DNA from: a virus
Taxonomy: Duplodnaviria; Caudoviricetes
Reading direction: 5' to 3' (one strand)
DNA: 42,296 nucleotides
Virus record (IMG/VR): IMGVR_UViG_3300038314_001501
Span: 1-42,296 of that record
The notes beneath the pieces are model-generated. The model saw only the letters and a program-made list of their open reading frames with translations. It did no database searches and had not been told where the DNA came from. Both the position numbers and the translations under genes were made by a program. Positions 1,093-38,637 of this stretch are shown one piece after another (position 1 is the first letter of the stretch; every line of letters begins with the position of its first letter).

Positions 1093-1269
1093 CTACAGCC
1101 GACCCCATGCAACTGGCTGGGTGGTACGAATGAAATCTATGAGATCTTCACGTAGAACACATAGCGAGCGGTCGTACTCAGACCAATGACGAGTAGCGTA
1201 GCCAACTGAGTTGAGATGACTCTCTATATGCTCTTCAAATTTCTTCTCAGTTGGTTTAAGTGAAGTCAC
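1093..1269 (-). pseudogene. hsdR: Truncated Type I restriction subunit HsdR (N-terminal 58 aa only)
   Basis: GTG overlaps the hsdS stop (GTGA). Translation MTSLKPTEKKFEEHIESHLNSVGYATRHWSEYDRSLCVLREDLIDFIRTTQPVAWGRL* resembles HsdR N-termini (E..FE..IE..L...GY...YDR.L.....D...FI..TQP..W). Confidence 0.75.
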
Positions 1270-1901
1270 GCCACTTCCTCCACAACCCTGACCTTACCTG
1301 TGACTACGTTAGAGATTAGGGACTGTCGATATTCTTTAAGTAGTTCAATCTTTCGTTCACTCTTTTCTATCAAAGAGTCTATTTGCGTTGTTTTTTCATC
1401 AAGGTAGTTGGCTATTTCGGTTTGGGTATTCTGGTTGGGTACAGGTATAACAATCGATTTCAACTGATCCCATCGAGTACTCCATAAATCCCAATGAATC
1501 CCTTTCCCATTCCTAAAAAATTCTTCTTTGAAGTAGTAACTCTTAAATAGATATTCAGCATAGGTGGGTATGATTTGTCGTGGCCCCAATACAATATTGA
1601 TTACGGAAACAGAACCATCTCTTTTAGATAAACCAGATGATCCTTTACGGTCTGAGCGGGAATTGATTACAAAATCACCTTCCCTAACAAGCTTCCTGTT
1701 GTCAGTATTATCGGTTTTTGCTACGTCTTCTAGTTGGTCAACTATCCCATTCATTGTCACAGACAAAGGAGGAAACGTTTTGTCATCGACTGTTTGTCTT
1801 CTTTCAGAGAAGTAATCACCGACTCTCTTCAAAGACCAACTGGACGGTATCTCTCCAATCCACTCTAGACCGCTGTCTTTATAACTTATGTATCTATTCA
1901 T
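1266..1901 (-). CDS. hsdS: Type I R-M specificity subunit, half-size (single TRD)
   Basis: YKDSGLEWIGEIPSSW start and Q.EIANYLDEKTTQIDSLI...LLKEYRQSLISNVVTGK end; only 211 aa. Confidence 0.9.
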   Translation of the reverse strand: MNRYISYKDSGLEWIGEIPSSWSLKRVGDYFSERRQTVDDKTFPPLSVTMNGIVDQLEDVAKTDNTDNRKLVREGDFVINSRSDRKGSSGLSKRDGSVSVINIVLGPRQIIPTYAEYLFKSYYFKEEFFRNGKGIHWDLWSTRWDQLKSIVIPVPNQNTQTEIANYLDEKTTQIDSLIEKSERKIELLKEYRQSLISNVVTGKVRVVEEVA

Positions 1902-3603
1902 CGGATAAACCTTTCAACAATGCACTAACATCATTGTCCAAAGACTTCAGGTCGTCTCTAATCTCTTGTACAGTCCTAAGCCCAGCAAACTTATAAAAAT
2001 ACTTGGTGAAATTAATTTCATATCCAATCTTGTCTTTTGACCTGTCCATCCATGCATCTGGTACATGGGGTCTAACCTCAGTTTCAAAATACCTATTGAT
2101 ATCTTGATCCAAAGGTACTCGTTCGTAATCCCTTTTCGCTGAGTCAGACTTGGGATTTCCCTTCCTATCTGTTTGTACCTCTCCATCTTCAACCAAAGGT
2201 TGCTCCACGGTTACCTTTGTATAGCCAAAGAATTCATTCGGGTAGATTTTGGAAAATTCGCTTTCCTCACCGGACATATAGATGTTAAAAAGCTCATCAA
2301 TGTGCTCACTCGATAATTCTTTGCCCTTGTCACCCAAGTTCTTTCTCATCGATGTTCCAAATGATGAGCCGTCAATAAGCTGAACTTTACCCATTCGCTC
2401 TGGTGATTTTTTGTTAGTTACAGTCCCTATGTAGGTATGGATACCCGTGTTGAAAAACATCCTGTCAGGGAGGGCAACAATACATTCAAGCCAGTCATTT
2501 TCAATAATCCACTTACGTATCTCAGATTCCCCACTTCCAGCATCACCAGTAAATAGGGGTGACCCATTGAAAACGATACCTATACGTGAACCATCTGGAT
2601 TCATTTTGTGAATCAAGTGTTGAAGGAACAACAACGAGCCGTCTGATGACCTTGGAGTACCTGCAAAGAACCTGCCACTAGGATCTTTACTCTCTTGTTC
2701 TATAAAAGCTTGTTCTGCCTTCCAGCTCACTCCAAACGGGGGATTGGTTATCATGTAATCGAATTTCCTGCCATGAAGACGATCATCGGAGAGTGAACTA
2801 GCAGGGCCGTGAATATTGTCAGTGTCTTCCCCCAGCATTAGGATGTCGGATTTGCATATTGCATAGGTAGTATCATTAAGTTCCTGCCCATAGATATTCA
2901 TTATCAAGTCTGGATTGATGTTTTCCTGAACCCACTCCTTTCCAATCGTCAGCATGCCTCCAGTCCCACAACAGGGGTCAAACACTGATCGAATCTTTCC
3001 TGCTCCTTCAAGATTCTTTCTGTCCCCTCCAAATACAAACGATACGAGGAGCCTGACTATATCTCTGGGCGTGAAATGGTCTCCACTTTCTTGATTGGAC
3101 ATCTCAGAGAATTTCCGAAGAAGCTCTTCGTAGATTGACCCCATTTGGTGGTTGTCTATCGCAGATGGGTGGAGATTAAACTCCGTGAACTTATCGATTA
3201 ATAAGTAAAGACGTTTGTTACTATCAAGTTTCCTAACCAGAGGGTCTATAGAGAAGTTATCAATGATGTTTCGCACATTCTCCGAATACCCTTGAATGTA
3301 GTTATTGAAGTTCATCATTACGTTATTCGGGTCGCTTTTGATGCGAGTCAGGTCAAATCTGGAGTGATTGTAAAAAGGGAGACCCACCTGCTTTTGAATT
3401 ACAGGGGAGGAATCTGTTAGCTTATCTTTATACTGCTCATAAAGGTTGAACATCTCATCTTTTTTGGACTCAAGTACGCAGTCCAACCTTCTCATGACGA
3501 CAAAAGGAAGAATGACACGTCCATATTCACTGGGCTTGAACAGACCACGTAGAACATCGTCTGCGGATGACCAAATGAGTGAAGAAAGATTGTTGTCAAC
3601 CAT
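1894..3603 (-). CDS. hsdM: Type I R-M N6-adenine methyltransferase subunit
   Basis: IWSSADDVLRG N-terminus, GDHFTPRDIV, FDPCCGTGGML (motif I), NPPF (motif IV), IGYEINFTKYFY C-terminus. Confidence 0.95.
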   Translation of the reverse strand: MVDNNLSSLIWSSADDVLRGLFKPSEYGRVILPFVVMRRLDCVLESKKDEMFNLYEQYKDKLTDSSPVIQKQVGLPFYNHSRFDLTRIKSDPNNVMMNFNNYIQGYSENVRNIIDNFSIDPLVRKLDSNKRLYLLIDKFTEFNLHPSAIDNHQMGSIYEELLRKFSEMSNQESGDHFTPRDIVRLLVSFVFGGDRKNLEGAGKIRSVFDPCCGTGGMLTIGKEWVQENINPDLIMNIYGQELNDTTYAICKSDILMLGEDTDNIHGPASSLSDDRLHGRKFDYMITNPPFGVSWKAEQAFIEQESKDPSGRFFAGTPRSSDGSLLFLQHLIHKMNPDGSRIGIVFNGSPLFTGDAGSGESEIRKWIIENDWLECIVALPDRMFFNTGIHTYIGTVTNKKSPERMGKVQLIDGSSFGTSMRKNLGDKGKELSSEHIDELFNIYMSGEESEFSKIYPNEFFGYTKVTVEQPLVEDGEVQTDRKGNPKSDSAKRDYERVPLDQDINRYFETEVRPHVPDAWMDRSKDKIGYEINFTKYFYKFAGLRTVQEIRDDLKSLDNDVSALLKGLSDE

Positions 3604-5602: not shown

Positions 5603-6172
5603 TTACGTTATTGGATATTCCCATCTTATCTTTGGGGCTAGTGTTTGCTCTTTGTTTCGCTGCCTCGTTCTTGTTGTCCACGATAAAGCCTTGGCTGGTT
5701 CGCTGGCAATCCAATTGCTTGCCTTGTAGATAGTGCCCTGATGAACCTCTGTATCCTGATAAGAGATAAGTTTGATGACATCGGGGAACTTCTTGCGAAT
5801 GAGTTTCACCATCACCCCGATCATCCAACTAGACGTGAACTTTGGAGCTTCAGCGCAGACAGCCAATCTCCGTAATTCAAGCAATCTACGCCCATCCTTC
5901 AGTCTGTTTCCTGCCACTGGTGTACTCCATATCCCCACAGCGAGGGGGTGACCATCATACCGAGCCACATAACAAACATAGTGGATATTTCTGACCACGT
6001 TAGACCAGTGGATATACGGTAGGCGGCTGTGCCATAGAGCGTTTAGTTCGCAAGCACTCTTAGCTGAAAGCTCCGAGACTACGAATTGGAGCGGTGAGGT
6101 CGGGATTGAACCGCCTTCTTCTATCTGGAATGATAGCTGTTCTACCATTGAACTACCACCGCACTGGTTCAC
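5603..6172 (-). CDS. mom: Mom-family (GNAT-like) DNA adenine hypermodification enzyme
   Basis: WHSRLP, LELRRLAVCAEAPKFTSSWMIG, KLISYQDTEVHQGTIYKASNW, matching the Mom-family pattern ELxR...P.N.ES...S(F/Y)AD...G.IY.ASN(F/W). GTG start has an AAGGAG RBS and overlaps the upstream stop (GTGA). Confidence 0.8.
   Translation of the reverse strand: MNQCGGSSMVEQLSFQIEEGGSIPTSPLQFVVSELSAKSACELNALWHSRLPYIHWSNVVRNIHYVCYVARYDGHPLAVGIWSTPVAGNRLKDGRRLLELRRLAVCAEAPKFTSSWMIGVMVKLIRKKFPDVIKLISYQDTEVHQGTIYKASNWIASEPAKALSWTTRTRQRNKEQTLAPKIRWEYPIT
6087..6162 (-). tRNA. tRNA-Gly(UCC)-like element, non-canonical, embedded in the mom coding sequence
   Basis: GCGGTGG TA GTTC-AATGGTA-GAAC AG CTATC-ATTCCA-GATAG AAGAA GGCGG-TTCAATC-CCGACC TCACCGC T CCA (76 nt). 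It has a 7-bp acceptor stem, D arm, TTC loop, U73 and encoded CCA. The anticodon loop is 6 nt and the T-stem carries a bulge. Confidence 0.75.
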
Positions 6173-6273
6173 TTCAACTCCTTCAAAGTTATTCCTGGTT
6201 GCTCTTTAGCCTTGAGAGCCATCAGAGCGAATACGGTCTGCGCTTTGCCTGTTAAGACGATGACGGGTTTCAT
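6169..6273 (-). CDS. 34-aa hypothetical protein translationally coupled to mom
   Basis: MKPVIVLTGKAQTVFALMALKAKEQPGITLKELK*; ATGA and GTGA overlaps at its two ends. Confidence 0.55.
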   Translation of the reverse strand: MKPVIVLTGKAQTVFALMALKAKEQPGITLKELK

Positions 6274-6842: not shown

Positions 6843-6871
6843 ATAGTAGCACAGAGATGGCACAATGTCAA
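6843..6871 (-). promoter_or_regulatory. Strong sigma70 promoter of the early operon
   Basis: TTGACA (6871-6866), 17-nt spacer, TACTAT (6848-6843); AT-rich UP-like tract upstream; TGTGC direct repeat in the spacer. Confidence 0.8.
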
Positions 6872-17441: not shown

Positions 17442-20129
17442 TTAGCTCCCCATGACGGCTTCCAGTGCTGGCTTAGGCTGTAGCTCGGCTTCCGGCTCTG
17501 AGTCCGCGATCTGGAAGTCCTTGCGCATGGATATGAAGCCGTCGAGGTCTTCATTATAGATGAACTTCCTTCTGTGAGTGGCGGTATTGCCAAAGGTATA
17601 TCGAGTGCGAGTGGCCTTCCCAGTCCACTGTGACTTACCACCACCACCCGTGTATTCAATCAGCGTCATACCGCTCTGAGGTTTCATACTCAGTGGTTGA
17701 GGTGGCGGAGGCGGAGTACTGACTCGTCTCTTACTACATCCTGCACATCCCATGATCAACTTCTCCTTGCCGGCCGCACCGTTATCGAATATCTCTGGCC
17801 ACTTCTGCCGCATGGCATCCTTGCTCTTTTCCTTATTAGCCATGTCGGATTCACGGCGCTTACCGGTTGTTTTCCTGTATGTAAAAAGCGGCTTGTTTAT
17901 CTTGACTGCACAACCCCCCTTGAGTGCATAGGCGATTTGAAAGTCCCAATCCTCCCAGCTCTGCATATCAACATCGTATCCGCCGACCTGCTCCCACGCT
18001 TCTTTTGAGTACATGGCACAACTCGCGTGGATGCAGCCCTTGCTGACAAGGAGCTCCGGATGCCATTCTGGGGGGTCCCATATCTTGGTATCCCCATCCC
18101 CCTTTTCATCCCACCACTGGGAGTAAACAACGCCCTTTGTTTCCTGCCACACTGACCACATATCCATCAGGCACGTTGGTTCCAGTATATCATCTGCATC
18201 AAGGCAAACAAAAGCGGCAGTCTCGGATAATGATATCCCTAAGTTCCGCGCTGCGGCGGGACCCTCCTTCCCCTTAGTGCTGACTATTCTGGCCCACGGA
18301 TGCGGTACCGCTAGTTCCTTGCCGGTGTCATTCACGACGATACAATGCCAGTTACGGAAATTCTGCGCCTCGACAGAATCAAGGGCATCGATAACCAGCT
18401 TCTCATGCCCAGTCCCCACAGGGATGACCACGGTTACCAACGCGGGTTCACAGGATGGTACTGGCCATGCCTTCCCTATCACCGCAGGCGGTTTAGCAGC
18501 GACCCCCCAGGGGACCAGATTGACATTCTTTGTCCAGGGCATCCACGAAGTCCAGTCGGGTTCTGTCTCACTGCGGCTCTTACTGTCTGGACGGTACCGG
18601 TAGATATACGTCACAGATTGTGTCACCTTCTTCGGCTGGAAACCATACGAAACAGCACGGATCCAGAACTCGGCATCCTCGGACACCTTCGCTCTATCGC
18701 GATATCCGCCCGTCCTCTCATAAACCTCCCGCCGGCATAGGCAAGTGCTGGGGATTTGGTTCTTATGTTGGAACTGAGCCAGGCAATTGAACTCGGGCGG
18801 CCACCTCGATACACCGTCATCGGTACCTGTAATCGGGTCTGGTGTCACCCCGTCCTCCAGGACAAACTTAATGCGCCCATAGGCGATATGGATCGATCGG
18901 TCATTGTCCAAAGCATCGGAGAGGTTCTTCAATGTTGCCGGCGGTATCATGTTGTCCGGGTCAAGGTTCATCACGTAACGGCCGCGGGCATGCTTGAAAC
19001 CATGATTCAAAGCCCCCGGCAGTTTGAGGTTGGCCCCGGTTGAGATCACTCTTATCCGATCATCACCCTTCGCCAGGTTCTTGGCAGCTTGGAAAGAACC
19101 ATCCTTGGATTTATCATCAACTATGATCAGTTCCCAGCTCCGCATTGTCTGATCCTGAACGCTCTTGATCATGTCAGGTAGGAGGTGGCCGAGGTTATAG
19201 CAAGGTGTTATAATGCTGACCTTTGGTAGATTATTGAGGTTGTTTTGCCGATCGTAAACATCCTGATAGAGCTGGGCGTATGATGCCATGACTTTATCCC
19301 ACGTAAAGCGCTCCAGCACTACAGCTCGGGCAGCCTCGCCAATCTCCTCACGGTGTTCAAGGCACCACGTTAAGCCCTCTCTCAGATGCTTATAGTCTCC
19401 GGGGGGAGATAGCCAGCCCGTTTTACCATGCTCGATTATCTCCGTCTGCCCTCCCCATTTCCAGCCTAATATCGGCACCCCGCAAGCCATCGCCTCAAGT
19501 GTTCCGATCCCAAAGGTCTCCCGCGTAGTGGCCAGATAAACCCCTGCATGCCGGATGTATTCCATTGCCTCCTGGAATACCTTCTTCCCGGTTACTTCAA
19601 CATTCTTTGCCGGCTGACCAAAGGTAGTGACGAATGGGACATCGGGTGATATGGCTGCCAGTTTGTTCACCGGTATCGGGTCCGATATCGCATCGGTTCG
19701 CGCCTTATTCCATAGAACATAACCCTCATTCTCCCCGGGTTCCCAGATCCCGGCGTCTATCCCGTGGTGTAGAACTGTTGGGCTAATCCAGGTACCCCGC
19801 TTGATTGCGTAAGCCACCCATTCACTCGGAGCCGTCACGTGATCGCACCGCTTCATCGCCTCGGTCACCTGGGCATTCACTCGGGCACCCCAGCCAGGCC
19901 AATCATATTCCGACCAGTAGAGACCGTGGCAATGCGACACCCAAGGCATCCCCACAGGGATATCAGGTATCTCGGCAGCATGAGTCGCTACGATATCGGC
20001 GCCGGCTATCTTGTCGACCATCTCGAAACCGTAGGCTGGGAGGTATTTGAATTGAGCCTCAACGACTCGTCTAATCCCACCATCACCTCTATCGGGTCTA
20101 TCATATTGCGGGATAATCATCAGTTTCAT
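17442..20129 (-). CDS. Multidomain glycosyltransferase (GT4 + GT2 + GT2) with a C-terminal non-GT domain
   Basis: GT4 ETFGIGTLEAMACG; GT2 VSIITPCYN...VDDKS...LDPD; second GT2 VTVVIPV...VVND...CLDADD...EDWDF. Confidence 0.9.
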   Translation of the reverse strand: MKLMIIPQYDRPDRGDGGIRRVVEAQFKYLPAYGFEMVDKIAGADIVATHAAEIPDIPVGMPWVSHCHGLYWSEYDWPGWGARVNAQVTEAMKRCDHVTAPSEWVAYAIKRGTWISPTVLHHGIDAGIWEPGENEGYVLWNKARTDAISDPIPVNKLAAISPDVPFVTTFGQPAKNVEVTGKKVFQEAMEYIRHAGVYLATTRETFGIGTLEAMACGVPILGWKWGGQTEIIEHGKTGWLSPPGDYKHLREGLTWCLEHREEIGEAARAVVLERFTWDKVMASYAQLYQDVYDRQNNLNNLPKVSIITPCYNLGHLLPDMIKSVQDQTMRSWELIIVDDKSKDGSFQAAKNLAKGDDRIRVISTGANLKLPGALNHGFKHARGRYVMNLDPDNMIPPATLKNLSDALDNDRSIHIAYGRIKFVLEDGVTPDPITGTDDGVSRWPPEFNCLAQFQHKNQIPSTCLCRREVYERTGGYRDRAKVSEDAEFWIRAVSYGFQPKKVTQSVTYIYRYRPDSKSRSETEPDWTSWMPWTKNVNLVPWGVAAKPPAVIGKAWPVPSCEPALVTVVIPVGTGHEKLVIDALDSVEAQNFRNWHCIVVNDTGKELAVPHPWARIVSTKGKEGPAAARNLGISLSETAAFVCLDADDILEPTCLMDMWSVWQETKGVVYSQWWDEKGDGDTKIWDPPEWHPELLVSKGCIHASCAMYSKEAWEQVGGYDVDMQSWEDWDFQIAYALKGGCAVKINKPLFTYRKTTGKRRESDMANKEKSKDAMRQKWPEIFDNGAAGKEKLIMGCAGCSKRRVSTPPPPPQPLSMKPQSGMTLIEYTGGGGKSQWTGKATRTRYTFGNTATHRRKFIYNEDLDGFISMRKDFQIADSEPEAELQPKPALEAVMGS

Positions 20130-20890
20130 GCCGACACCTTCAATGCTTCCAACTTGTCCAAAAACTCCTTACTTGCCTCTTCCCTAGTGAGCCCCCGATT
20201 CTCCAGCGCCTCCTTGAAGCTGTACCCATCGCCTATGTGATCGCATATATCATAGCGCAACCAGGCGGGCCAGACGATATCCGGTCCGGGCTGGCACATT
20301 ACATTCGATTGCATCCCCAGTTCGGTAATCCCAGGGGTCTGGCCTTCAGGGTAGATACCGTAAGCATCGTGGAATCGGCGGTGCCTCATGGCAGCGTGGC
20401 CGACCCACGTCCACAACTGCTTCTCTTTGTCCAACCTCCACCATAAGCGATCGCCGCCCGTTATGACATGGCCGTATAGATCAGGCTGTAGTCTTCCGAG
20501 CCGTACCATGCCTATTTCCTCATTCTCCTGGAACAATTCAACGCATGGAATCAACTCGATCTCCATATTCGGTACCCAGTCATCCTCCCAGTGAAGCCAC
20601 ATATCAGCCCGCTCCAGGCATCTCGCTATTCCCTCATTCATGTTCTTCCCGACGCTGTGACCGCCCGTGTTGGAAGTTGTTATCTCATAATCAGCCCCGA
20701 TCTCCTCAACTAGCTTTTCGATGTGACCACCATTACTCCCGTCGTCGGCGATGTGCCATCCAAGATTGGGATACCGGATTCTTTCCTTGATGCCACGGAT
20801 CGTAGTGAGTGCGACCTCAGTCCGCTCATAGGTAATAAGAAGGACTATCACCAGGGGGAATTCGTTCATTTCTTCACCGTTATCTTCCAT
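20126..20890 (-). CDS. GT2/GT-A glycosyltransferase
   Basis: LLITYER, IADDGS, HWEDDW motifs. Confidence 0.8.
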   Translation of the reverse strand: MEDNGEEMNEFPLVIVLLITYERTEVALTTIRGIKERIRYPNLGWHIADDGSNGGHIEKLVEEIGADYEITTSNTGGHSVGKNMNEGIARCLERADMWLHWEDDWVPNMEIELIPCVELFQENEEIGMVRLGRLQPDLYGHVITGGDRLWWRLDKEKQLWTWVGHAAMRHRRFHDAYGIYPEGQTPGITELGMQSNVMCQPGPDIVWPAWLRYDICDHIGDGYSFKEALENRGLTREEASKEFLDKLEALKVSA

Positions 20891-20924
20891 AATGTTCTCG
20901 GGACTCCATGCTCAGGAATTGTCA

Positions 20925-22034
20925 CTATCTCTTTGAACTCACCCCCGGTGAATACGACCGACTCCACATCCGCAAGTCTAGCTTCCCTAACGAAAGTAAG
21001 TTTAAACCTGGGATCGTTCCGAGGACGCCACGCTTCTCCGGATGGTTCACCATGGCCTCATCATCCACCGCCTGTTTGATCATGGCTTTAGCATCATCTA
21101 TTGACAGCGCCGTATCAGGTCGCTCGGAATTGTAGCGCTTATTGTGCCTCTCGAGGGGATCAGAAGTCATCGGGTATAGGCGCATGACAGCTTCCCTCAT
21201 GTTCGGGTTGCATAATGGAATTTGCTCGGCGCGGACAGATTCAATATCACCCAGTAAGTCCTCATGCATCTTTTCACCGAACCGGACACCGACCTCCTCA
21301 AATTCAACATCCTCGGCGTCCCCATCTAATTCCAGCGAAGCCACAGCGCGCGCCACATCCATCATATTCAGGGACGGGAGTCGGGGGATTAAGATAGTAC
21401 CGCCCTGCTTTTCCTGAAGCGCCATCAAGATCAGCTCTACCCCAGTCCCGACAGACAGCCAGAATCGGGTCATCTGAGGGTTGGTGATTAAGACATGTCT
21501 GTCCTTGATTATCTGGCGCCTGAACAATGGGATAGCACTGCCGGTACTGGAGACGACATTGCCATATCTAACAAGATTGAACTGCGTGGGACTCTTGGCA
21601 TCGGCTTCCTGGAAGAGGCGCTCCATCATCAGTTTGGTCGTACCGTAAACGTTGATCGGTTGGCACGCCTTGTCGGTGGATATCCCGACAACGCGGTCGA
21701 CGCCATTCCGGGCAGCGGCCCGGGCAACATTGAGGGAGCCAATGACGTTGATCTCGTGGCATTCGGCAACGTTAATCTCTGCCTCAGGGACATACTTGAA
21801 GGCAGCGGCGTGGACAACCGTATCGTGCCCCGCCATGGCCAACTCAATTGAATCGTAATCCCTCACGTCCCCGATGATGTATCTGTGCTGAGGGAATTCT
21901 CTCTGGCAATAAGAGTGCTTCCCGTGGTCTCTACTGAAGATAGTACAACGGACATCGGGCTCGCGTTCAGCCAATGTCCGTAATAGTGCTCGTCCCAGGT
22001 AGCCTGCGCCACCAGTAATGAATAGATTCCTCAT
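20925..22034 (-). CDS. UDP-GlcNAc 4,6-dehydratase-like (PseB/CapD family)
   Basis: TGGAGYLG, HAAAFKYVP, STDKA, YGTTK, RYGNV, MTRFW, GEKMHE motifs. Confidence 0.9.
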   Translation of the reverse strand: MRNLFITGGAGYLGRALLRTLAEREPDVRCTIFSRDHGKHSYCQREFPQHRYIIGDVRDYDSIELAMAGHDTVVHAAAFKYVPEAEINVAECHEINVIGSLNVARAAARNGVDRVVGISTDKACQPINVYGTTKLMMERLFQEADAKSPTQFNLVRYGNVVSSTGSAIPLFRRQIIKDRHVLITNPQMTRFWLSVGTGVELILMALQEKQGGTILIPRLPSLNMMDVARAVASLELDGDAEDVEFEEVGVRFGEKMHEDLLGDIESVRAEQIPLCNPNMREAVMRLYPMTSDPLERHNKRYNSERPDTALSIDDAKAMIKQAVDDEAMVNHPEKRGVLGTIPGLNLLSLGKLDLRMWSRSYSPGVSSKR

Positions 22035-22056
22035 GCCAATCTCTCCTTATGTTTAG

Positions 22057-22094
22057 TGGAGAGGGGAGGTGGGTGCTGATTCCTCCCCTCTCCA
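22057..22094. terminator. 13-bp GC-rich stem-loop downstream of the capsid gene (terminator or stabiliser)
   Basis: TGGAGAGGGGAGG / CCTCCCCTCTCCA with a 12-nt loop; no clear U-tract on the minus strand. Confidence 0.55.
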
Positions 22095-22131
22095 GCCACT
22101 GACCTCAGTCTGTTGACTACTTGAGCCTAGA

Positions 22132-23562
22132 CTAGAGCGGCCAGTTCGATTCTGAGGTGTCGCCGCCATCGACGAAGTAAGTATCATCACCAGGGAACGG
22201 GGTCCTCTCATGTTGCAGCGGGTTGTACCGTACATTCTGGATACGACCGGCCAGCTGCGGGGTCCTGAGGATGAGCCGCGGTCTGATGACGCCTGCCGCC
22301 TTCAGGCAGGACTTTGTCCGGGCATTGGTCCAGAACCACATCCCATTATCGGTTGTCCACACTCCGTTGGCATGGAACCAGTCCAGTGTCGGAGCCATCT
22401 GCGGGTTGTTGAACTGGAAGAACTCCATGAAGGTCACCGGCGCGGCACCGACTCTCAGCGGGATCAGGTAGATATCCGATGCCATCTGGCCAGGCGGGAT
22501 ATTGGCATTGTCGCCGTTGGTCTCCTCAGTGATACCGACATCGGTGATCACCGGGATCTCCACGCCTTCAACCGGGAGTACCTTGTTCATCCGCAACCGG
22601 TCTCTCTCCCTGACCATCTCCGTGGCATTCACGTTATTCCTGTCCTGAGCATTATTGGTTACGTTGCAACCGAAGGTGCTGTAGCGGCAAGGCCACAACT
22701 GGGAAAGCTCGTGGAACAGGCTGGGTCTCATCACCAGTGCCCAGTCGACCGGCATCATCCCCGTGGTCTCTGCCAGCCGCTTCAGGAAGTGCACCATCGC
22801 TGACATGACCTGTACGATATCAGCCGGGTTGGTTGCCGTGATGAGCTGATAGTTGAAGTCCTTCAGGTCGGAGTCGAGGGACGGGCAGCTGGTCTGGGAG
22901 ACCGCATCCTGGTGCCCGGTAGTGATCAGCATGTCAAAGCCATTGAACGGCACGAAGCCGGTACCCACGGCGTTGGCTACATTTCCGTTCCACACCATCT
23001 GCGAGATCACCCTTGACACTGATGTGCCGTACTCGAGTAGGACTTTCGTCAACTCAAGCTGGAGACTCTTGTCGGGTGGAACCCCACCCGGAGCCATGCT
23101 GTCGATACCCAACAGGTTCATCAACTGGAGGTCCATGGGATCAGAGCGGTTCACGCGCTGGCCTATCCTCTCCAGTAAAATCTCCCTTGTATCGCGGCAG
23201 ATGCGGCCGAAGGATGACGTCAAGGTGCAGCCTTTCAGCAAGCCGGGCTGAACACAATCAGCGCATTCGGTTGACGGCTCGCTTCCTGTATCGTCCTGGA
23301 CACCCGTGAGGGTTTCGTAATACGGGGTATCAAAGACCGATGGGTTTTTGGGCAACACGCCCAGGATGCCGGGCTCAATCCCGACTATAGTGGAGAACAC
23401 CTGCGGGTCCAAACCGGGCATCGTCAGGATACCACCACTCCCGTGGAAGTACTGAGCATTGGGCGTCCCAGAGGCATCATGCTTGTATCCCGTTTGCAAA
23501 CCCTTCTCTCTGACAATGGTTTCAACCATCGCTGAAAGGGCTTTTTCCATTACAGCGTCCAT
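22132..23562 (-). CDS. Major capsid protein
   Basis: Follows the protease/scaffold gene; strong AAGGAGG RBS; size; FNGFD and PRLILRTPQLAGRIQNV HK97-like segments. Confidence 0.8.
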   Translation of the reverse strand: MDAVMEKALSAMVETIVREKGLQTGYKHDASGTPNAQYFHGSGGILTMPGLDPQVFSTIVGIEPGILGVLPKNPSVFDTPYYETLTGVQDDTGSEPSTECADCVQPGLLKGCTLTSSFGRICRDTREILLERIGQRVNRSDPMDLQLMNLLGIDSMAPGGVPPDKSLQLELTKVLLEYGTSVSRVISQMVWNGNVANAVGTGFVPFNGFDMLITTGHQDAVSQTSCPSLDSDLKDFNYQLITATNPADIVQVMSAMVHFLKRLAETTGMMPVDWALVMRPSLFHELSQLWPCRYSTFGCNVTNNAQDRNNVNATEMVRERDRLRMNKVLPVEGVEIPVITDVGITEETNGDNANIPPGQMASDIYLIPLRVGAAPVTFMEFFQFNNPQMAPTLDWFHANGVWTTDNGMWFWTNARTKSCLKAAGVIRPRLILRTPQLAGRIQNVRYNPLQHERTPFPGDDTYFVDGGDTSESNWPL

Positions 23563-23608
23563 AACTGTAACCTCCTTGTTAATACGTTATTTTACAATCC
23601 CATTGCTC

Positions 23609-25459
23609 CTACTGAGCAGGGGCAGAAGGCTTGAAGAAGCCCGCCAGCATATCCTCATTGACTGGAGCCTTCACCGAGGTGGCCTCCTCCTCCGTCTTCT
23701 CAGCCACTGTCGGAGGGTCGCCCTTTTCCGATGCCTGGAAGCCAGCACTCTGTGCCTTGAATGCGTCGGCTATAATCTCGTCCACAGTCTTCCCCGCCTT
23801 CTCGGCCGTAGCCTTAACGACCGCCTCCATGGCGTCGAGCCGCGTCCCAAGCCCTGGAATTGTCGTCTCCTTCAACTCCTTCACTCCATCGGTCAGGCTC
23901 GAGATGGCGGTAATCATGGCCTTGAAACCATCGCTCTCAACGAGAGCCTTGACGGTGTCCTGAACGACGGTCTCCGTGGATACCGCTTCACTGCCGGGCA
24001 AACCCAAATCCTTCGACTCGATGCCCAAGCTGGTGAGGTCCTTCTCAAGGTCAGTAACCTTGCTTTCCAGCGCTACGGCTACCTCTTCACCGTGAAGCCC
24101 CACGATGTATTTCCTTTTCTCTGGGTCGAACATTTGTTTGACCTCCTTCTTTAGTATATCCATTGCAGTCCACACATTAGCAGCCTTGTCGATGGGAAGG
24201 TGCGACACTTCCCAGGTGCGGTAGTGACCGATGATCTCTTGTTCCTTGTCGCTGTATGTGTAGACGAAACCATGGGACATGCCGATATCCTCGTGCTGAC
24301 ATTTCTCAGCCAGTTTCTCAGCCTCGGCATATTTCTCCTTGTCAATCGGGCCACCCATTATCAGGAAGCCATTGCTGTAGTCAGCGAAGTCCGCAACGCC
24401 TATCCTGGTGCCGGGCGTGTGCCACGAGAGCAGTACTGGATAATCTTTCGACTCATCCAGGTATTCGATAAAGTCTTTATGCGCCGCCTCCTCAATTATC
24501 TGCTGCGGATTGTCCCGGTCCCTCCATTTATTCGATGGGATCCCGATCCACCGCATGGCACCGTCTTTGTCCTTGCTGATCACGAACATAGCCGCATCCT
24601 TAACATCCTTGACCGCATTCAGGCGCCGGCGCAGGTTTTCCTTCTGGTCATCGTTGCCGTCCGACTTACCGATAGCGGTCCCAATGCGGCTGACCGCCTG
24701 CTTCTTCTGATCACCGGTAAGCTGGACTCTCTGTCCGCGGAAGCCACCGGGCTGCATCGCAGTGATGGCCGCCGCCACCTGGCGGACTGTGAAATTACCG
24801 CTGCTCTTTTCAGCCAATCGCAGTTTCCAGGTTGAAGGTTTATCCGAATCAGGGACCACGGCATAATCGGAAGCCTTGAACTTGACGCCATCCTCGGTCT
24901 TGGTTTCCTGCTTCTCGGCGTTCGGTTCAACCGCCTTCGACATGTCTGATAGTATCTCCGCAACTCTCTTCTGGAAACCGCTGGCTATCTTCTTGATCTT
25001 GCCCGGTTTACCAGCTAAGTCATCATCGCTATCCATGACATTCTCCATGAGTATCTTAGTTTCCCAAGTCGTCTCATGAACTGCACCAGCCTGATCCTGC
25101 GCCTTCCTCCACTCTTCCAATTCCTCGAAAGACTGAGCGCCAGCAAAGGGTCCTTGAGGTGCGTTTTGGTCAACTATGACAACAGGAACGGGGCCTCGTC
25201 CTGTCTCGTCCGGATGCCCCTTATCAGCGGTCGTTTCTTTGTTCTCCACAACGCCCACCTCCTTCTTTATTGTACCATTGGCAACCTTGAAGGCCGTCTC
25301 CTCGCATTTCTTCAGTGCCCCGGCACCTCCCCCGGTCTTCGGGTCCATACAGTTCTTGAGGAAGCCATTGAATGTACTGACCCATTTCTGGCGCTGAGGT
25401 TCCGTGAGCTTCTGCACATTGCTCGGTAATTTCGGATCGTTCGGTCCAGCGAATGGCAT
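23609..25459 (-). CDS. ChaB-like N-terminus + prohead protease + scaffold fusion
   Basis: LPSNVQKL....RQKWVSTFN (ChaB-like); WRDRD..IIE...LLSWH...GMSHGF...EVS protease-like motifs; acidic/Ala-rich C-terminus; upstream of MCP. Confidence 0.7.
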   Translation of the reverse strand: MPFAGPNDPKLPSNVQKLTEPQRQKWVSTFNGFLKNCMDPKTGGGAGALKKCEETAFKVANGTIKKEVGVVENKETTADKGHPDETGRGPVPVVIVDQNAPQGPFAGAQSFEELEEWRKAQDQAGAVHETTWETKILMENVMDSDDDLAGKPGKIKKIASGFQKRVAEILSDMSKAVEPNAEKQETKTEDGVKFKASDYAVVPDSDKPSTWKLRLAEKSSGNFTVRQVAAAITAMQPGGFRGQRVQLTGDQKKQAVSRIGTAIGKSDGNDDQKENLRRRLNAVKDVKDAAMFVISKDKDGAMRWIGIPSNKWRDRDNPQQIIEEAAHKDFIEYLDESKDYPVLLSWHTPGTRIGVADFADYSNGFLIMGGPIDKEKYAEAEKLAEKCQHEDIGMSHGFVYTYSDKEQEIIGHYRTWEVSHLPIDKAANVWTAMDILKKEVKQMFDPEKRKYIVGLHGEEVAVALESKVTDLEKDLTSLGIESKDLGLPGSEAVSTETVVQDTVKALVESDGFKAMITAISSLTDGVKELKETTIPGLGTRLDAMEAVVKATAEKAGKTVDEIIADAFKAQSAGFQASEKGDPPTVAEKTEEEATSVKAPVNEDMLAGFFKPSAPAQ

Positions 25460-25470
25460 AATAGACCTCC

Positions 25471-26472
25471 CTAGTTATTTCTGACGGTAACGGGCCCGAG
25501 AGTCGAACTCGGTCCTCCTCCGCATGAGAGAGGCGACTTATCCGCTTGTCCTGCCCGACTCATATACTCGATTGTCCGTTTGATTCCTTCTTCCAATGTA
25601 ACAGTCGGCTCCCAGCCTATTTGATCTCTGAATCTATTTGCATCCAGAAAGGATGTCCTGACATCGCCCTGGCGAGTATCCTCATACTTTGGGCTGATGT
25701 ACTTACCCATCTGGGCTGAAATAATCCTGTGTATCTCATTGACTGTGATTGGGCCCCCGGATCCGATATTATAGATCCCATCCTTGTCGGCCTCCAAAGC
25801 CATAACATTGGCTCTCGCAATATCTTCAACAAACACGTAGTCCCTCGCTTGGTGACCATCTCCATATATTATACACTGTTCGTCAAGCATCATGCGACCA
25901 ATGAAGATAGCGACGACTCCAGCCGCCCCGTCCGCGGGCTGACCGGGGCCGTAAACATTCGGATATCTCAGCACGGCGCGGCTAATTCCGGATATCCGGA
26001 CATAGAACTCACCAGCTAATTTCGATATCCCGTAGGGAGATTGGGGGTCGAGCGGAGCGTCCTCCCCAACAGGAAACTTGGCGGGGTTACCATACACGGT
26101 GCCGCCGCTCGAGGCGTAGACAATCCTCTTGACTCTATTTCTTCGCAATGTAATTGACCTTGCAGCGTCAACAACAGAGATAGTACCCATGACATTCTGC
26201 TCGGCATCAAGTCCCCAGGCAGCCATTGAAACGGGGACTGCGCTCTGCGCACCAAGGTGGATGATGCCCTCGATTTCGTATTCGCACATCAACGCATCCA
26301 TCAACGGCTTGTCCTTCATGTCACCCGTTATCTTGTGGAGGCACTTCAAATCACGCATGCGCATCAGATCCCAATCAAGAGCGGTCACATCGTAGCCCTT
26401 CTCTTCGAGAAGCCTGATGGTGTGCCGTCCTATGAATCCCGCTCCGCCGGTGACCAATACTCTTTTCATCAA
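25471..26472 (-). CDS. NAD-dependent sugar epimerase/dehydratase (GalE-like)
   Basis: TGGAGFIG, ASSGGTVYG, YGISK, LRYPNVYGP, RDYVFVEDIA. Confidence 0.92.
   Translation of the reverse strand: MMKRVLVTGGAGFIGRHTIRLLEEKGYDVTALDWDLMRMRDLKCLHKITGDMKDKPLMDALMCEYEIEGIIHLGAQSAVPVSMAAWGLDAEQNVMGTISVVDAARSITLRRNRVKRIVYASSGGTVYGNPAKFPVGEDAPLDPQSPYGISKLAGEFYVRISGISRAVLRYPNVYGPGQPADGAAGVVAIFIGRMMLDEQCIIYGDGHQARDYVFVEDIARANVMALEADKDGIYNIGSGGPITVNEIHRIISAQMGKYISPKYEDTRQGDVRTSFLDANRFRDQIGWEPTVTLEEGIKRTIEYMSRAGQADKSPLSCGGGPSSTLGPVTVRNN
25485..25559 (-). tRNA. Degenerate tRNA(CAU)-like cloverleaf inside the epimerase 3' end
   Basis: GTCGGGC AG GAC-AAGCGGATAA-GTC G CCTCT-CTCATGC-GGAGG AGGA CCGAG-TTCGACT-CTCGG GCCCGTT A CCG. 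T arm and anticodon arm are intact; the acceptor stem has a mismatch and ends CCG rather than CCA. Confidence 0.5.
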
Positions 26473-30362: not shown

Positions 30363-30908
30363 TCAACCCTTCCTGTTTTTGAGTTCGGTCACCAGGATAT
30401 GACCTATCATCAAGTGGATGTCTTCTATCTGCTCCATGACCTCCGATGGGACGATGAGGCAGATGTCGGCGAGCCCCTTTACTGCACCACCTTGGAAGCC
30501 GGTCAAACCGATCGTCCTGACTCCCCACTCCTTAGCGATAGTGAGAGCTCTATAGATATTCTCCGATTCACCGCTCCCGCTGATAACCAGAACGACGTCC
30601 CCTTCATCTAGGAAGCGGCTCAGTTGCTGCCTGAATATCTCAGCATAACCCTCATCATTCGCCCAAGCTGTGATGAGATAATTCGAGTCCGTCAGAGCCA
30701 TCGCCTTGAGTCCGCACGTCTTATTAAGGTCTCCAGCTATATGCGAAGCGGTGGTCGCGCTCCCGCCATTGCCCATCACATAAATCCGGTTACCATTCTT
30801 GTGGGCTTCCCAGAGGACATCGGCAATCTCCCTGACCGTTTTGAAATTGTAGTCAACATACTTCAGGATGGTTCTCAGATCGTAGACATATTGTTCAATG
30901 CTCATCAT
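30363..30908 (-). CDS. gmhA: Phosphoheptose (sedoheptulose-7-P) isomerase, SIS domain
   Basis: MGNGGSATTASH, ITAWAND, ISGSGES.N, EQIEDIH motifs. Confidence 0.88.
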   Translation of the reverse strand: MMSIEQYVYDLRTILKYVDYNFKTVREIADVLWEAHKNGNRIYVMGNGGSATTASHIAGDLNKTCGLKAMALTDSNYLITAWANDEGYAEIFRQQLSRFLDEGDVVLVISGSGESENIYRALTIAKEWGVRTIGLTGFQGGAVKGLADICLIVPSEVMEQIEDIHLMIGHILVTELKNRKG

Positions 30909-31344
30909 TCCCTCTCTTTTGATCGCTGGCCCAGGCCGCCATGGCCTTCCTGAACATAACAGTGCTGGAGTTCAGTAGATCTCCCACGCCGTAGACGATC
31001 TCGCACCCTATCTCAGCACAGACGTCTTTCTCGACCTGGAGCATATTATCCGATGTCCTGTCACCACCCTTGGCGTAGATATCAGGTTTCAAAGCCCTCA
31101 ATACATCAAGCGGACTCCCGTTGATATAGTCCGGTACCATGACTTGGTCGACATCAACAACCGCCTCCAGGATGGCAACCCTATCGTCGATCGGGACAAG
31201 ACAGTATCCTTTCTTCTCTCTGAGTACTTCATCCGGGCAGACAAGGACAATCAGCCAATCTCCCAAAGCCTTCGCCTTCTTGATATGGTCCAGGTGTCCC
31301 CGATGAATGGGGTCGAACCCGCCGGCGATTACAACTCTGATCAC
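30895..31344 (-). CDS. HxGH cytidylyl/adenylyltransferase (RfaE-II/TagD-like)
   Basis: GGFDPIHRGH, PDIYAKGGDR, NSST. Confidence 0.88.
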   Translation of the reverse strand: MIRVVIAGGFDPIHRGHLDHIKKAKALGDWLIVLVCPDEVLREKKGYCLVPIDDRVAILEAVVDVDQVMVPDYINGSPLDVLRALKPDIYAKGGDRTSDNMLQVEKDVCAEIGCEIVYGVGDLLNSSTVMFRKAMAAWASDQKRGNDEH

Positions 31345-32312: not shown

Positions 32313-33833
32313 TCACCTCCACTTTAGATTCGAATGCTGCAGTTTGAAAACTTTGAACCCAAGATCCTCTGATTCGTATGCACTTTTAGGATCACTTTTT
32401 GAATTATCATTAATATTAGCAATCGCTTTCCGTATTCTCTCTTTACCAATCTCTGAAATTGTATTATACCCAGCGTGTCTTGCTGGATGCCCTTCTGGTA
32501 TTAGTTCAGGTAATTGAACCATGATAAAATGCCGAGTACCGTTATCTCGCCCATTTAGGTCAATGATTGCATGGGCAGTTGTGCATGAACCGGCAAAGAA
32601 ATCAAGAATGATGCCCGTTTTTGTGTGGTCTCCTAGTTGAACCATTTTCTTGATGAGGTCAACCGGTTTAGGATTGGGGAAAGTGCTCTTATCATCAAAT
32701 AATTTCCTCAAAGATTGTGTGGCATTTGTTGTAGTACTAACATCATCCCACCACGTTTTTGCCACTCTCCCTCTTTCTTCTGCCTCTGTTTGAAAACGTT
32801 TTCTTTGAGGCCCCGCTTCACCGGATACTCCAAAGACTATGCGATTATCTTCTAATAGCTCTAAATATTTCTTGTAATCATTTTTCCAACTGCAACTTGG
32901 GTTGGGTTTATATATCTCGCCAGTTTTAGGATTCACTATTTCGTACTGTTGATTAGGCCTCCAACCTCCAACTTGAAATGGATCGGCCTTCCAAGGCCCT
33001 CTTGAGTCATTGTCGGGATTTGAAAATCCTTCGCCATCCTCTGGGAGTCGGAAATGATTTCTGTTTTTTGTGAAGTAATCAATCTCCTTGGCATAGATTA
33101 AATTATATGTGTGTGATACGGAAATAAGTGCTGTATTAGTAACAGACTTTGTTGAATTCCAGACTACTGTTCCAATAAGATTTTCTTCTCCGAAAATATC
33201 ATCACACATTTTCCGCAAATTACTAAACTCATTATCATCAATAGAGATAAAAATCACCCCGTCTTCCCGTAATAGATTACGGGCAAGGTAAAGCCGTGGA
33301 TACATCATATTCAGCCATTTGGTGTGGAAGCGACCTTCATTAGGATTGTTGGTAGAGAATTTCCTTCCCTCATCATCTACTAACCCAGCATAGGCCAGGT
33401 ATGTCTTCAGCGTTTCGGAGTATTTATCTCGATAAATGAAATCATTACCAGTATTGTAAGGTGGGTCAATATAAATCATCTTTATCTGACCCGCATAACT
33501 TTTTTGGAGGAGTTTTAGAACTTCGAAATTATCACCTTCAATGAAAATATTATGAGTCTTTTCTTCGTTAACGCCTTCGCCCTCGCAAGGAACTAGAGTA
33601 CCGGTGCTAGGTATACTTGTAAGTCTACGTGCTTCACGCTTACCGGGCCACGACAATCCAAAGTGTTCTGTTTCGGGTGTTTCAGATTCTAGATATTCTC
33701 CAAGCGCTTCATGGAGTACTTCCCAGTTAATTTTACCGTCAGCGAAGGCTTCTGGGACTATCGTCTTTAATTGTTCAATTCGTTCCTGATCGAATAAATA
33801 TTTAGGTCTGATTCTTTCTTGTGGCATTGGCAT
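32313..33833 (-). CDS. mod: Type III R-M Mod-like N6-adenine methyltransferase, C-terminally shortened, no Res partner
   Basis: EQLKTIVPEAFADGKINWE, FGLSWPGK, IYIDPPYNTG, FPNPKPV, LDFFAGS; ends right after GFKVFKL..SN; AT-rich. Confidence 0.88.
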   Translation of the reverse strand: MPMPQERIRPKYLFDQERIEQLKTIVPEAFADGKINWEVLHEALGEYLESETPETEHFGLSWPGKREARRLTSIPSTGTLVPCEGEGVNEEKTHNIFIEGDNFEVLKLLQKSYAGQIKMIYIDPPYNTGNDFIYRDKYSETLKTYLAYAGLVDDEGRKFSTNNPNEGRFHTKWLNMMYPRLYLARNLLREDGVIFISIDDNEFSNLRKMCDDIFGEENLIGTVVWNSTKSVTNTALISVSHTYNLIYAKEIDYFTKNRNHFRLPEDGEGFSNPDNDSRGPWKADPFQVGGWRPNQQYEIVNPKTGEIYKPNPSCSWKNDYKKYLELLEDNRIVFGVSGEAGPQRKRFQTEAEERGRVAKTWWDDVSTTTNATQSLRKLFDDKSTFPNPKPVDLIKKMVQLGDHTKTGIILDFFAGSCTTAHAIIDLNGRDNGTRHFIMVQLPELIPEGHPARHAGYNTISEIGKERIRKAIANINDNSKSDPKSAYESEDLGFKVFKLQHSNLKWR

Positions 33834-35620: not shown

Positions 35621-36454
35621 CTAGAGTTCTAAACTTAGCTGTGCAAGACTTCTCTTAGCTATCTCCACATAGGTTGGATTAATTTCATACCCTATAGCGT
35701 TTCTACCAAGACTGTTCGCAACTCTTACAGCGGTCCCGCTTCCTAAAAATGGATCCAACACAGTATCACCCACGAATGTATATAGCTTTATCAGTCTTTT
35801 CGGTAGCTCGTCAGGGAATGGAGCCGGGTGTCCTATAATTTGTGCCTTAGCAGGCTGCATCTCCCATATAGAATTTACAGCCCATTCCGACCATTCATTT
35901 TTGCTTAATTTAGATTGTTCTTTTATTTCTCGTGGGACTTTTTCTCGTTTCCCCTCCTTACTGAAGACAATGATCCATTCAAAAGGGAACGTGGAGAAGA
36001 TGTTCCCAGGGTAAGGATAGGAACCAAAAGAACTAAACCTAACTATCTTCCTCTTGTCCCAAATATAGGTAGAATGTAGATACATGCAGTTAGATTCAAA
36101 CATAAACTTTTCGAGATCAGTTATTACTAACTTAGTTTCTCTACGTTTAAACTTACTTTCGTTACCAGACAAAAATATGGGCATTATGTTAATACAGAGC
36201 TTACCATCTGGACCTAACACACGAATACATTCTTTCCATACTTGATTCAGAAAATTCATATAGTCGTAATAATCTTCAAAGTCGCCTGCCTGGTTTGTGT
36301 GATTGTTGGTAGAATTATAGTCTTTTAAGTCAAAGTATGGAGGACTTGTCACGATAAGATGAACTGAGTTATCTGCAACTTCATCCATAGAACGCGCATC
36401 TTTACAGTACATCTTAACGGAAGGTATTTTCTCTACCATTTCGATTTGTCCCAA
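35621..36454 (-). CDS. N4-C/N6-A DNA methyltransferase (beta class)
   Basis: VTSPPY precedes HPAPFP and VLDPFLGSGT. Confidence 0.92.
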   Translation of the reverse strand: MGQIEMVEKIPSVKMYCKDARSMDEVADNSVHLIVTSPPYFDLKDYNSTNNHTNQAGDFEDYYDYMNFLNQVWKECIRVLGPDGKLCINIMPIFLSGNESKFKRRETKLVITDLEKFMFESNCMYLHSTYIWDKRKIVRFSSFGSYPYPGNIFSTFPFEWIIVFSKEGKREKVPREIKEQSKLSKNEWSEWAVNSIWEMQPAKAQIIGHPAPFPDELPKRLIKLYTFVGDTVLDPFLGSGTAVRVANSLGRNAIGYEINPTYVEIAKRSLAQLSLEL

Positions 36455-37497
36455 ACCACAATCTGCTCTCTTCTCCTCGTTTTGTTAATGCTGTCCCAAA
36501 TTTTACTAGCAGTTTTGGTATATTCTCTTCCTATTACTTGAATAGGTTTATACTTTGAAATACGAGTGAAAAAATCCCCTCCATTTATTACTTCGCCTCC
36601 GATCTTTTTGTCACCTACAACGAAAATAATGATGGCATCATCCGTCGTCACTTTTTCTATTTCATCCAGACAGCGAACCATATCTTGTTCATAGGTACCC
36701 CGATTTTGTATTAATCCCGATTTAATACGCTCAAAATCATTGTCAAAAACATGGTGGACTATTCGTGTGTAGTAGGAGGTATAATCCAAGCAGTCAAAGT
36801 AAGGAGGGCTCGTGTACACAATATCAACTGATTTGGGAGGTATCAATTCACTTAATTTCCTAGTATCTCCTGATATGACCTTCGCATTGTTGCTAGGTAG
36901 GGGATAGCCATGCTTGGTTATTTTAGATAGAAATCGATCAGCGAAATTAATGTAGCGCTTGTTTTCGCTCAATTGCCCTATCTGAGTCGAAGTCCATTTA
37001 TAGTGGTTACAAGCTCTTGCCACCAAGCATATTGTACCGAGGAATACCGCCTTCTCATAGTTACTGAATTCATGATAGTGTTGCTTAAGGAGTATTATTT
37101 CGTTCGCAGTGTCTGGGTGAAAATAGCGCTCAGCTTTGGGAGGAATCGGATGTATAGAACTGAAGTCTATTTTTCCTATAATCCGGTTTAGACGATACAT
37201 GCTATTCTCTGACGAGAACTGATTTATCTTGCCAATAGCAATTTGAATTGCTATTGGATTATTATCTACACCGATGGCATATCTCAATCTCTTAGCAGCT
37301 TCGTAAACAATAGTTCCTGAACCACAAAAGGGATCTAGTAGTACTTTGTCATGGGATAACTGACCGATAACATTAGCGGCATCTAAGGAAGATATCTTGC
37401 CGCGATAAGGGTATATACCATGAATCGAATTCTGGTTACTTACTGATTCCAACTTTGTGAATGATAATTGTTCCGTAACCACCAATGTTATCTCCAA
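36433..37497 (-). CDS. N4-C-type DNA methyltransferase (alpha-like motif order)
   Basis: HGIYPYRGK, LLDPFCGSGT precede TSPPY. Confidence 0.88.
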   Translation of the reverse strand: MEITLVVTEQLSFTKLESVSNQNSIHGIYPYRGKISSLDAANVIGQLSHDKVLLDPFCGSGTIVYEAAKRLRYAIGVDNNPIAIQIAIGKINQFSSENSMYRLNRIIGKIDFSSIHPIPPKAERYFHPDTANEIILLKQHYHEFSNYEKAVFLGTICLVARACNHYKWTSTQIGQLSENKRYINFADRFLSKITKHGYPLPSNNAKVISGDTRKLSELIPPKSVDIVYTSPPYFDCLDYTSYYTRIVHHVFDNDFERIKSGLIQNRGTYEQDMVRCLDEIEKVTTDDAIIIFVVGDKKIGGEVINGGDFFTRISKYKPIQVIGREYTKTASKIWDSINKTRRREQIVVWDKSKW

Positions 37498-38091: not shown

Positions 38092-38637
38092 TTATTCCTT
38101 CCCTTCCGGTAGTGCCCCCCTTCGCTCTATTATCTCATCAAGCTCTGCGTCAGTCATCTCTTCCAGTGGCTTATGGGATGCCGGCTCGATCTCGTGCTTG
38201 GTGATATCACCAGGCTGGCCCCGGGATATCCGCTCGAGCTTGGCACCCTCGACTATCGCCCTGATGGCATCCCGATCAGCCATCTGTAACACTACAGTCT
38301 CCTTCAGACTACCATCGGCATTCAGGTATTTCCGCAACCCTAACGTCTGGAGTGCCATCGCCTGCTTGGTCTGCCGCTCTACCATATCAACGATAGCCTT
38401 CTCCTGTGCCTCTGCCCTAGCCTCGGCCATGTGGTCATCATGTAGATTGGCACGGTTGACCCAGTCATATCGCGATGACCACCTAGCGAGATGGCGGTAA
38501 TAACTTGGCTTTCTGTCGGCGTTGTCTAGGACTTTCTGTATTGACCTCTCCCTGGGGAGCATGTCCCGATACAGCATGAAGGCGTGGAATGCCTTCGCGG
38601 ACTCGGTTTCACGCCTGTGCCAAGGTTGTCTATCCAT
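38092..38637 (-). CDS. Terminase small subunit-like protein
   Basis: WHRRETESAKAFHAFMLYRD...RWSSRYDWVNRA; C-terminal MTDAELDE; follows ParB-MTase. Confidence 0.7.
   Translation of the reverse strand: MDRQPWHRRETESAKAFHAFMLYRDMLPRERSIQKVLDNADRKPSYYRHLARWSSRYDWVNRANLHDDHMAEARAEAQEKAIVDMVERQTKQAMALQTLGLRKYLNADGSLKETVVLQMADRDAIRAIVEGAKLERISRGQPGDITKHEIEPASHKPLEEMTDAELDEIIERRGALPEGKE

Follow-up and report, generated by a model that had tools for sequence, protein, structure and literature searches.

Why should a gene for a DNA-modifying enzyme carry a glycine tRNA-like RNA within its own first codons? The question is posed by a mom gene in a 42,296-nucleotide stretch of viral DNA (IMGVR_UViG_3300038314_001501, positions 1 to 42,296), the whole of which is referred to here as the window. 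The window is a linear virus record of 42.3 kb (61% complete by CheckV) with terminase, portal-like, tape-measure, and tail genes and several methyltransferases. A preliminary description of the locus had proposed a one-locus system of Mom-family enzyme plus private glycyl-carrier RNA, in which each transcript is either translated or processed into the donor. The gene and its start region comprise the following features.

5603..6172, minus strand: mom gene, GTG start, 189 aa, GNAT-fold Mom-family protein
6178..6183, minus strand: Shine-Dalgarno-like AAGGAG read from the sequence, 5 nt ahead of the mom GTG
6169..6273, minus strand: 34-aa open reading frame whose stop overlaps the mom start (GTGA); no PHROG match
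6843..6871, minus strand: sigma-70-like promoter match, TTGACA-17-TACTAT with TG, ahead of an HTH gene

The window open reading frame is a member of the Mom family, as first described. It scored 50.3 bits against Pfam PF25680, above the curated cutoff of 27.1, so that the profile search proposed for exposing a non-Mom protein instead recovered Mom, and it matched phrog_1384 (E 1e-19); its score against the NCBIfam XF1762 family (NF045478) was 30.6 bits, below the cutoff of 50. The predicted fold (pLDDT 85.7, with low confidence for residues 1-20, the tail that overlaps the RNA) had Mu Mom (8bv8) as its best Foldseek PDB match (E 1e-7, TM 0.67), by a narrow lead over other GNATs in the ranking. 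Residue mapping equated window H48, R102, S115, D140, and Y149 with Mu H58, R111, S124, D149, and Y159, and these positions were retained in 72 aligned proteins with the RNA at the 5' end of their gene (H in 71, R in 72, S or T in 72, D in 71, and Y in 72). The window protein thus shares with Mu Mom the GNAT fold, the equivalents of these five residues, and PF25680 membership. It differs in that residue mapping found no counterpart of Mu R151 (E142 or a gap) and in that the HTH-like insertion at Mu 175-209 is absent, only about 35 residues following the GTIY motif. Both are essential in Mu Mom; therefore, Mu-type chemistry is not proven for the window clade, and an N6-carbamoylmethyl product like that of Mu would be an assignment by analogy. 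The GTG start holds up as well, given the AAGGAG 5 nt upstream and the overlap with the TGA of the 34-aa frame, which itself (6273-6169) overlaps a 69-aa frame upstream (ATGA). The HTH gene likely opens the operon containing mom; the promoter match ahead of it is a lead only, because the number of sigma-70-like sites found (3) is at the chance level (2.9 expected).

The RNA and its parts lie entirely within the mom frame; changes on both sides of pairs refer to an alignment of related copies.

6087..6162, minus strand: tRNA-Gly-like RNA, 76 nt, overlapping mom codons 4-29 (frame nucleotides 11-86)
6156..6162, minus strand: 5' strand of the acceptor stem (G1, C2, G3, G4), pairing with 6091-6097
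6139..6153, minus strand: D arm, 4 bp and a 7-nt loop; 4/4 pairs change on both sides
6121..6136, minus strand: anticodon arm, 5 bp and a 6-nt loop, UCC at 6129-6127; 5/5 pairs change on both sides
6098..6115, minus strand: T arm with a bulged A at 6100; T-stem cells 100% paired in register with the bulge
6087..6097, minus strand: 3' strand of the acceptor stem, U73 at 6090, and encoded CCA at 6089-6087, read from the sequence

The cloverleaf originally placed at about codons 4-29 is the minimum free energy structure of the element (z -3.0, with 1/200 shuffles equally good), and ARAGORN called 6162-6087 as "tRNA-???". The Infernal comparison with RF00005 that had been suggested gave a match at E 0.006, although its 27.8 bits lie under the gathering score of 29; our own covariance model (R1) scored the window copy, which was in its training set, at 94.5 bits. 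In its mRNA context, the RNA still folds, the acceptor pairs with a probability of about 0.95 and the other arms of about 0.4. G1-C72, C2-G71, G3-C70, U73, UCC, and CCA are all present as first listed. The published determinants for glycyl-tRNA synthetase (GlyRS), namely, G1-C72, C2-G71, C35, C36, and U73 (PMC10464925), are therefore complete in the window copy, together with a purine at position 4. What the preliminary description overlooked were two departures from a decoding tRNA: the anticodon loop has 6 nt rather than 7, and the bulged A interrupts the T-stem between pairs 50-64 and 51-63. The D-loop retains GG and the T-loop UUC. An alternative ATG lies within the D-loop (6148-6146), and a match of the element to sR53 (E 0.5) was treated as chance.

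To what extent the RNA is conserved was addressed with a homologue set of 190 sequences (189 loci plus the window), of which 186 matched the core and 7 lay too near a contig end. Among 138 nonredundant close homologous loci, 98 passed a stem filter, and one of these (L013), lacking both T-loop and CCA, was removed by eye as false, leaving the RNA in 97/138 loci as 86 distinct elements. UCC, the bulged A, and G1-C72 were each found in 86/86 of these protein-selected copies, and CCA was encoded in 83 and missing in 3; position 73 was U in 69 and A in 17, and the T-loop read UGC in 30. Two subtypes of equal length were apparent, one with a 7-nt D-loop and a 6-nt anticodon loop (46 copies) and one with an 8-nt D-loop (35 copies), in which an added 32-38 pair leaves a 5-nt anticodon loop in 32/35. 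The remaining 41/138 close homologues lacked the RNA, and it was found elsewhere in 0/10 of the records of such homologues tested, most of which are fragments.

Covariation was scored over 82 copies of the 7-nt-D-loop subtype drawn from both protein- and DNA-selected sets. In this alignment, 99.2% of cells pair, versus 39 to 51% in slid controls, and 18/21 pairs change on both sides, with all four helices covarying and a covariation score of 0.614 versus 0.07 to 0.10 for the controls; since the copies are related, these counts are not independent events and are inflated by that relatedness. Codon usage gave a similar result. The Phe codon over the anticodon loop is TTC in 74/74 copies while its flanking residues vary, and the same Phe is encoded by TTT in 10/13 homologues without the RNA, indicating that selection acts on the RNA. 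Likewise, the Gly21 codon over the RNA is GGT in 81/86 copies, with mixed codons at downstream control positions. The RNA is real and strongly selected. Conservation and covariation among homologues, the principal check proposed at the outset, were thus found, and the earlier opinion that the glycine identity was unlikely to be chance is upheld.

Linkage to mom was assessed with two DNA patterns. The first spanned UCC through CCA and left out the 5' half; it matched at least 119 viral loci, 105 of them nonredundant among the matches listed. A full acceptor stem was present in all 105, though its 5' half lay outside the pattern; 75 of these RNAs stand at the start of a reading frame and 28 at the 3' end, with 2 unassigned. 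The adjoining frames matched Pfam Mom in 97/103 cases among the matches listed, the 6 misses being cut by short flanks, and where flanks were long, 71/71 exceeded the Pfam cutoff. The second pattern was blind to protein, anticodon, and acceptor stem and required only the T-arm, bulge, and CCA; of 112 nonredundant matches listed, 110 folded. These 110 had G1-C72, C2-G71, C35, and C36 without exception and U73 in 106. Position 34, of importance only in decoding, varies freely in the family, whereas C35-C36 is fixed: the triplet was UCC in 70, ACC in 35, and CCC in 5 of the folding matches listed. Nonglycine identities were absent from the 110, a set limited by the one T-stem sequence fixed in the pattern, and UGC replaced UUC in the T-loop of 66. 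The bulge tally of 226/226 in the scans was not used as evidence, as the DNA patterns required the bulge for scan matches. An estimated 380 and 930 viral stretches, approximately, match the first and second patterns, respectively.

Same-strand mom genes lay beside 97/110 of the folding matches listed, with the RNA at the 3' end in 62 and at the 5' end in 35; of the other 13, 2 (L326 and L428) are antisense to the nearest mom match and 11, mostly with short flanks, had no mom detected, as in L335, L358, and L359. When 79 3' copies were pooled, the mom stop was located beyond CCA in 58, inside the RNA in 8, and ahead of G1 in 13. Short copies of 67 to 72 nt numbered 27 among the matches listed, all of the 3' or unassigned class, and 22/27 lack the D hairpin. 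The cultured Psychrobacter phage vB_PmaS_Y8A has two tandem, noncoding, D-armless copies directly after the mom stop (L309 1162-1229 and 1234-1302; OQ059336.1 7786-7926), between mom and the terminase small subunit gene; this pair is unannotated and missed by ARAGORN, and a search of cultured phages with it returned only itself. A blastn search of cultured phages with the window element found no more than two matches, both of 27 nt, and the whole records of Mu, pAEv1818, and FSL SP-031 contain no such RNA. In Methylophilales phage Melnitz-3, a hypothetical gene about 1 kb upstream of mom contains, in frame, a tRNA-like fold of another kind (L442 771-844; MZ577098.1 68570-68643), which has UCC in a loop and lacks the bulged A. 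In bacteria, the bulge pattern occurred in 1/401 genomes of one phylum, a genome in which such a mom had already been noted and where a second copy is cut by the contig end. Two contigs (L048 1868-1943 and L052 1246-1321) have two adjacent mom genes of different clades, one with the RNA, which could serve both. Dereplication at 75% reduced 278 proteins to 146 for a quick, unrooted tree, in which the 3' position requires 2 changes and sits near Mu, and the 5' position spans several deep groups. Genes without the RNA are scattered (15 changes), as would be consistent with repeated loss; as the tree lacks a root and is unfinished, we claim no order of events.

Where the RNA overlaps the start of mom, it was expected from the GTG start to be translated. 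Openness of the frame was not accepted as sufficient proof of this, since conserved positions of the RNA close the other two; the Mom frame is open through the RNA in 84/86 and 60/61 copies, and 55/58 read-through 3' copies use one same frame. Better evidence comes from upstream starts. RNAs of the 5' class begin 4 to 25 nt after the start, and, in the 24 nt preceding G1, an ATG was in the Mom frame in 64/86 copies, versus 7 and 4 in the other frames; the same test on further copies gave 45/61 versus 8 and 3. A start inside the RNA was missing in 25/86 copies and was the only start in 7/86. Given this excess of in-frame upstream ATGs together with the open frame, the stretch is, judged from sequence, dual-coding in most copies, in support of the earlier view. 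Five length variants were noted (L078, L135, L162, L050, and L113): copies longer by 1 nt shift the start, L135 being entered in another frame and L078 and L162 having a stop just ahead of an internal start, and the +3- and -3-nt copies keep the frame.

The tail peptide may have a role of its own. An LF dipeptide is kept in the tail of 13/19 homologues without the RNA, versus 13 to 18% in controls, and the Phe of this dipeptide is encoded by the UUC of the anticodon loop. The beta-clamp-binding consensus is QL[SD]LF. RNA-less homologue L087 reads QLDLF, which resembles this consensus, and window 6140-6125 encodes EQLSF, with spacing one residue short. Continued translation of the RNA would be accounted for if the tail were a beta-clamp tether.

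What, then, is the RNA for? In Mu, Mom takes glycine from Gly-tRNA-Gly and attaches it to adenine N6; it accepts all three Escherichia coli tRNA-Gly isoacceptors and rejects glycine on tRNA-Ala (PMC13219725), which confirms the donor named in the preliminary description. We propose that the RNA is probably a processed, GlyRS-charged, ribosome-excluded glycyl donor for Mom. It would be cut out of the mom transcript by RNase P release and 3' trimming, charged with glycine by the host GlyRS, and kept from EF-Tu and the ribosome through its T-stem bulge, and Mom would take the glycine from this private RNA to modify adenine in phage DNA. The reading is favored because the GlyRS set and CCA are kept while decoding features (base 34, anticodon loop size, T-loop UUC, and the D-arm) vary or are lost. 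Furthermore, the freedom of position, including intergenic tandem copies, argues for an RNA product rather than a switch. The bulge falls within the part of the T-stem, its first three pairs, that determines EF-Tu affinity (PMC7826273).

A close parallel may exist in Staphylococcus, where the nonproteogenic tRNA-Gly species NP1-NP3 are donors for FmhB/FemA/FemB and are marked by a UGC T-loop and a 5-nt anticodon loop, as described in the available text of PMC7826273. Shared with the mom RNA family are glycine identity, an altered EF-Tu contact helix, and a GNAT-fold glycyl transferase partner, and the UGC T-loop and 5-nt loop are present in part of the family; the window copy is marked by its short anticodon loop and bulge and keeps UUC, unlike its UGC relatives. 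On the same source, NP1-NP3 differ in being free-standing chromosomal genes that serve peptidoglycan and whose EF-Tu binding is weakened by A-U pairs, not by a bulge, whereas the mom RNA, which is mobile and in many cases dual-coding, would act in DNA modification. The likeness is probably convergence.

Several observations count against the donor reading, including the 41/138 close homologues without the RNA and the copies with A73 (17/86) or without CCA (3/86). A73 abolishes charging by Lactobacillus plantarum GlyRS and reduces it for the E. coli enzyme (PMC10464925). The RNA is not required in general, since Mu has none and Mu Mom uses ordinary tRNA-Gly. In addition, L. plantarum GlyRS charged a D-arm deletion very poorly, and its beta subunit was modeled to contact the T-stem (PMC10464925), so that bulged and D-armless forms may charge badly; E. 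coli GlyRS has been reported to charge a minihelix (PMC10464925). The central proposal, an enzyme with a private glycyl carrier, thus gains support from conservation, covariation, and mom linkage, the donor role itself being what we infer from them. Its second part, self-limitation by a choice between translation and processing, cannot be the core function, because the RNA lies wholly after the stop in 13/79 3' copies and is intergenic in both copies of the cultured phage. Where RNA and frame overlap, each RNA cut out would cost one mRNA, and Mom output would likely be damped as a side effect. The full picture, in which mom loci of many phages and islands encode an enzyme plus a ribosome-excluded glycyl-carrier RNA, down to a D-armless 68-69-nt form, with the same 76 bases giving both the carrier and a functional N-terminal tail and excision limiting its own mRNA, asks more of the data, and we judge the odds to be slightly in its favor.

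Alternatively, the fold could stay in the mRNA as a cis-acting regulator that represses mom, either through binding of Mom or GlyRS or through cleavage by RNase P. The closeness of 5'-class RNAs to the start and their folding in the mRNA context would suit such a switch, as would the 66/79 3' copies with the stop inside or after the RNA, from which cutting would remove the stop; moreover, since Mu Mom tells tRNA-Gly from tRNA-Ala bodies, glycine identity could serve Mom binding. This is nevertheless unlikely given the 3' copies wholly after the stop and the tandem intergenic pair, and CCA, C35-C36, and the same bulge at both gene ends are not expected of a switch. Cis regulation may coexist with a donor role where the RNA overlaps the frame. 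Less probable by a clear step is a trans-acting decoy or shield, a released, uncharged RNA that spares the Gly-tRNA pool by titrating a tRNA-targeting nuclease, a Gly-tRNA-acetylating toxin, or a T-box switch. Mom linkage and glycine identity fit this idea, odd loops could resist anticodon nucleases, and poor charging of a D-armless tRNA by one GlyRS leaves room for an uncharged role, yet a variable position 34, shrunken loops, and D-arm loss would spoil mimicry for factors that read the anticodon or elbow, and retention of the full GlyRS set points to charging.

Two further readings have very little probability left. An ordinary decoding tRNA-Gly(UCC), overlapping mom to save space, would account for an RF00005 score just below the cutoff, for GG and UUC in the window loops, and for related copy L194, which ARAGORN calls tRNA-Gly, but not for the 6-nt loop and bulged T-stem of the window copy or for its ACC and D-armless relatives, and three host tRNA-Gly(UCC) compared have no extra base between T-loop and acceptor. 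A conserved peptide or decayed relic (protein selection, or an old tRNA insertion or attachment site) is largely refuted by compensatory changes in four helices, fixed synonymous sites, and the same RNA in untranslated positions, even though the LF dipeptide of RNA-less homologues implies some selection on the peptide.

The overlap of RNA and mom is itself already in print. The available text of PMC3146451 (McMurdie et al. 2011) describes a conserved 76-bp tRNA-Gly-like "pseudo-tRNA," with anticodon "DCC," found in 16 Dehalococcoides ssrA islands within the initial 150 bp of their mom homologue and used in that study as a primer site, with no function assigned. It shares with the window RNA its 76-nt length, its place within the first 150 bp of mom, a tRNA-Gly-like fold, and the DCC triplet, and it very likely belongs to the same family, a likeness drawn from description, not alignment; that text makes no mention of 3'-end, D-armless, or tandem forms. 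Because the overlap had been described there, what is new here is function and breadth. The term "tRNA-like" is absent from the main text of PMC13219725, the RNA is unmentioned in the available text of PMC7824862 and of a preprint, and the literature searched, which covered few subscription journals, yielded neither the donor link nor the bulge nor the 3', D-armless, or tandem forms.

If the donor reading is correct, viruses have evolved their own nonribosomal aminoacyl carriers for DNA hypermodification, a carrier role so far established for staphylococcal cell wall tRNAs, and the pseudo-tRNA noted in 2011 would gain a function. A single-base T-stem bulge would then be a natural means of barring a charged tRNA from EF-Tu, useful for orthogonal carriers, and the RNA would point to glycine as the donor in distant Mom clades of uncharacterized chemistry. 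With its two free-standing copies, cultured phage vB_PmaS_Y8A makes this reading directly testable.

Other features of the window are also of interest. ARAGORN called a tRNA-Met(CAT) at 25486-25559 (minus strand), overlapping the 3' end of an epimerase frame (25471-26472); it has no RF00005 match and the call may be false. Glycosyltransferase, two nucleotide-sugar epimerase, and one heptose/nucleotidyltransferase-like gene lie amid virion structural genes (17442-26472 and 30895-31344). Finally, a type I HsdM-like gene with a downstream open reading frame and four further DNA methyltransferase-like genes (1266-3603, 32313-33833, 35621-37497, and 38630-40144) give the window an unusually heavy load of DNA modification genes beside mom.
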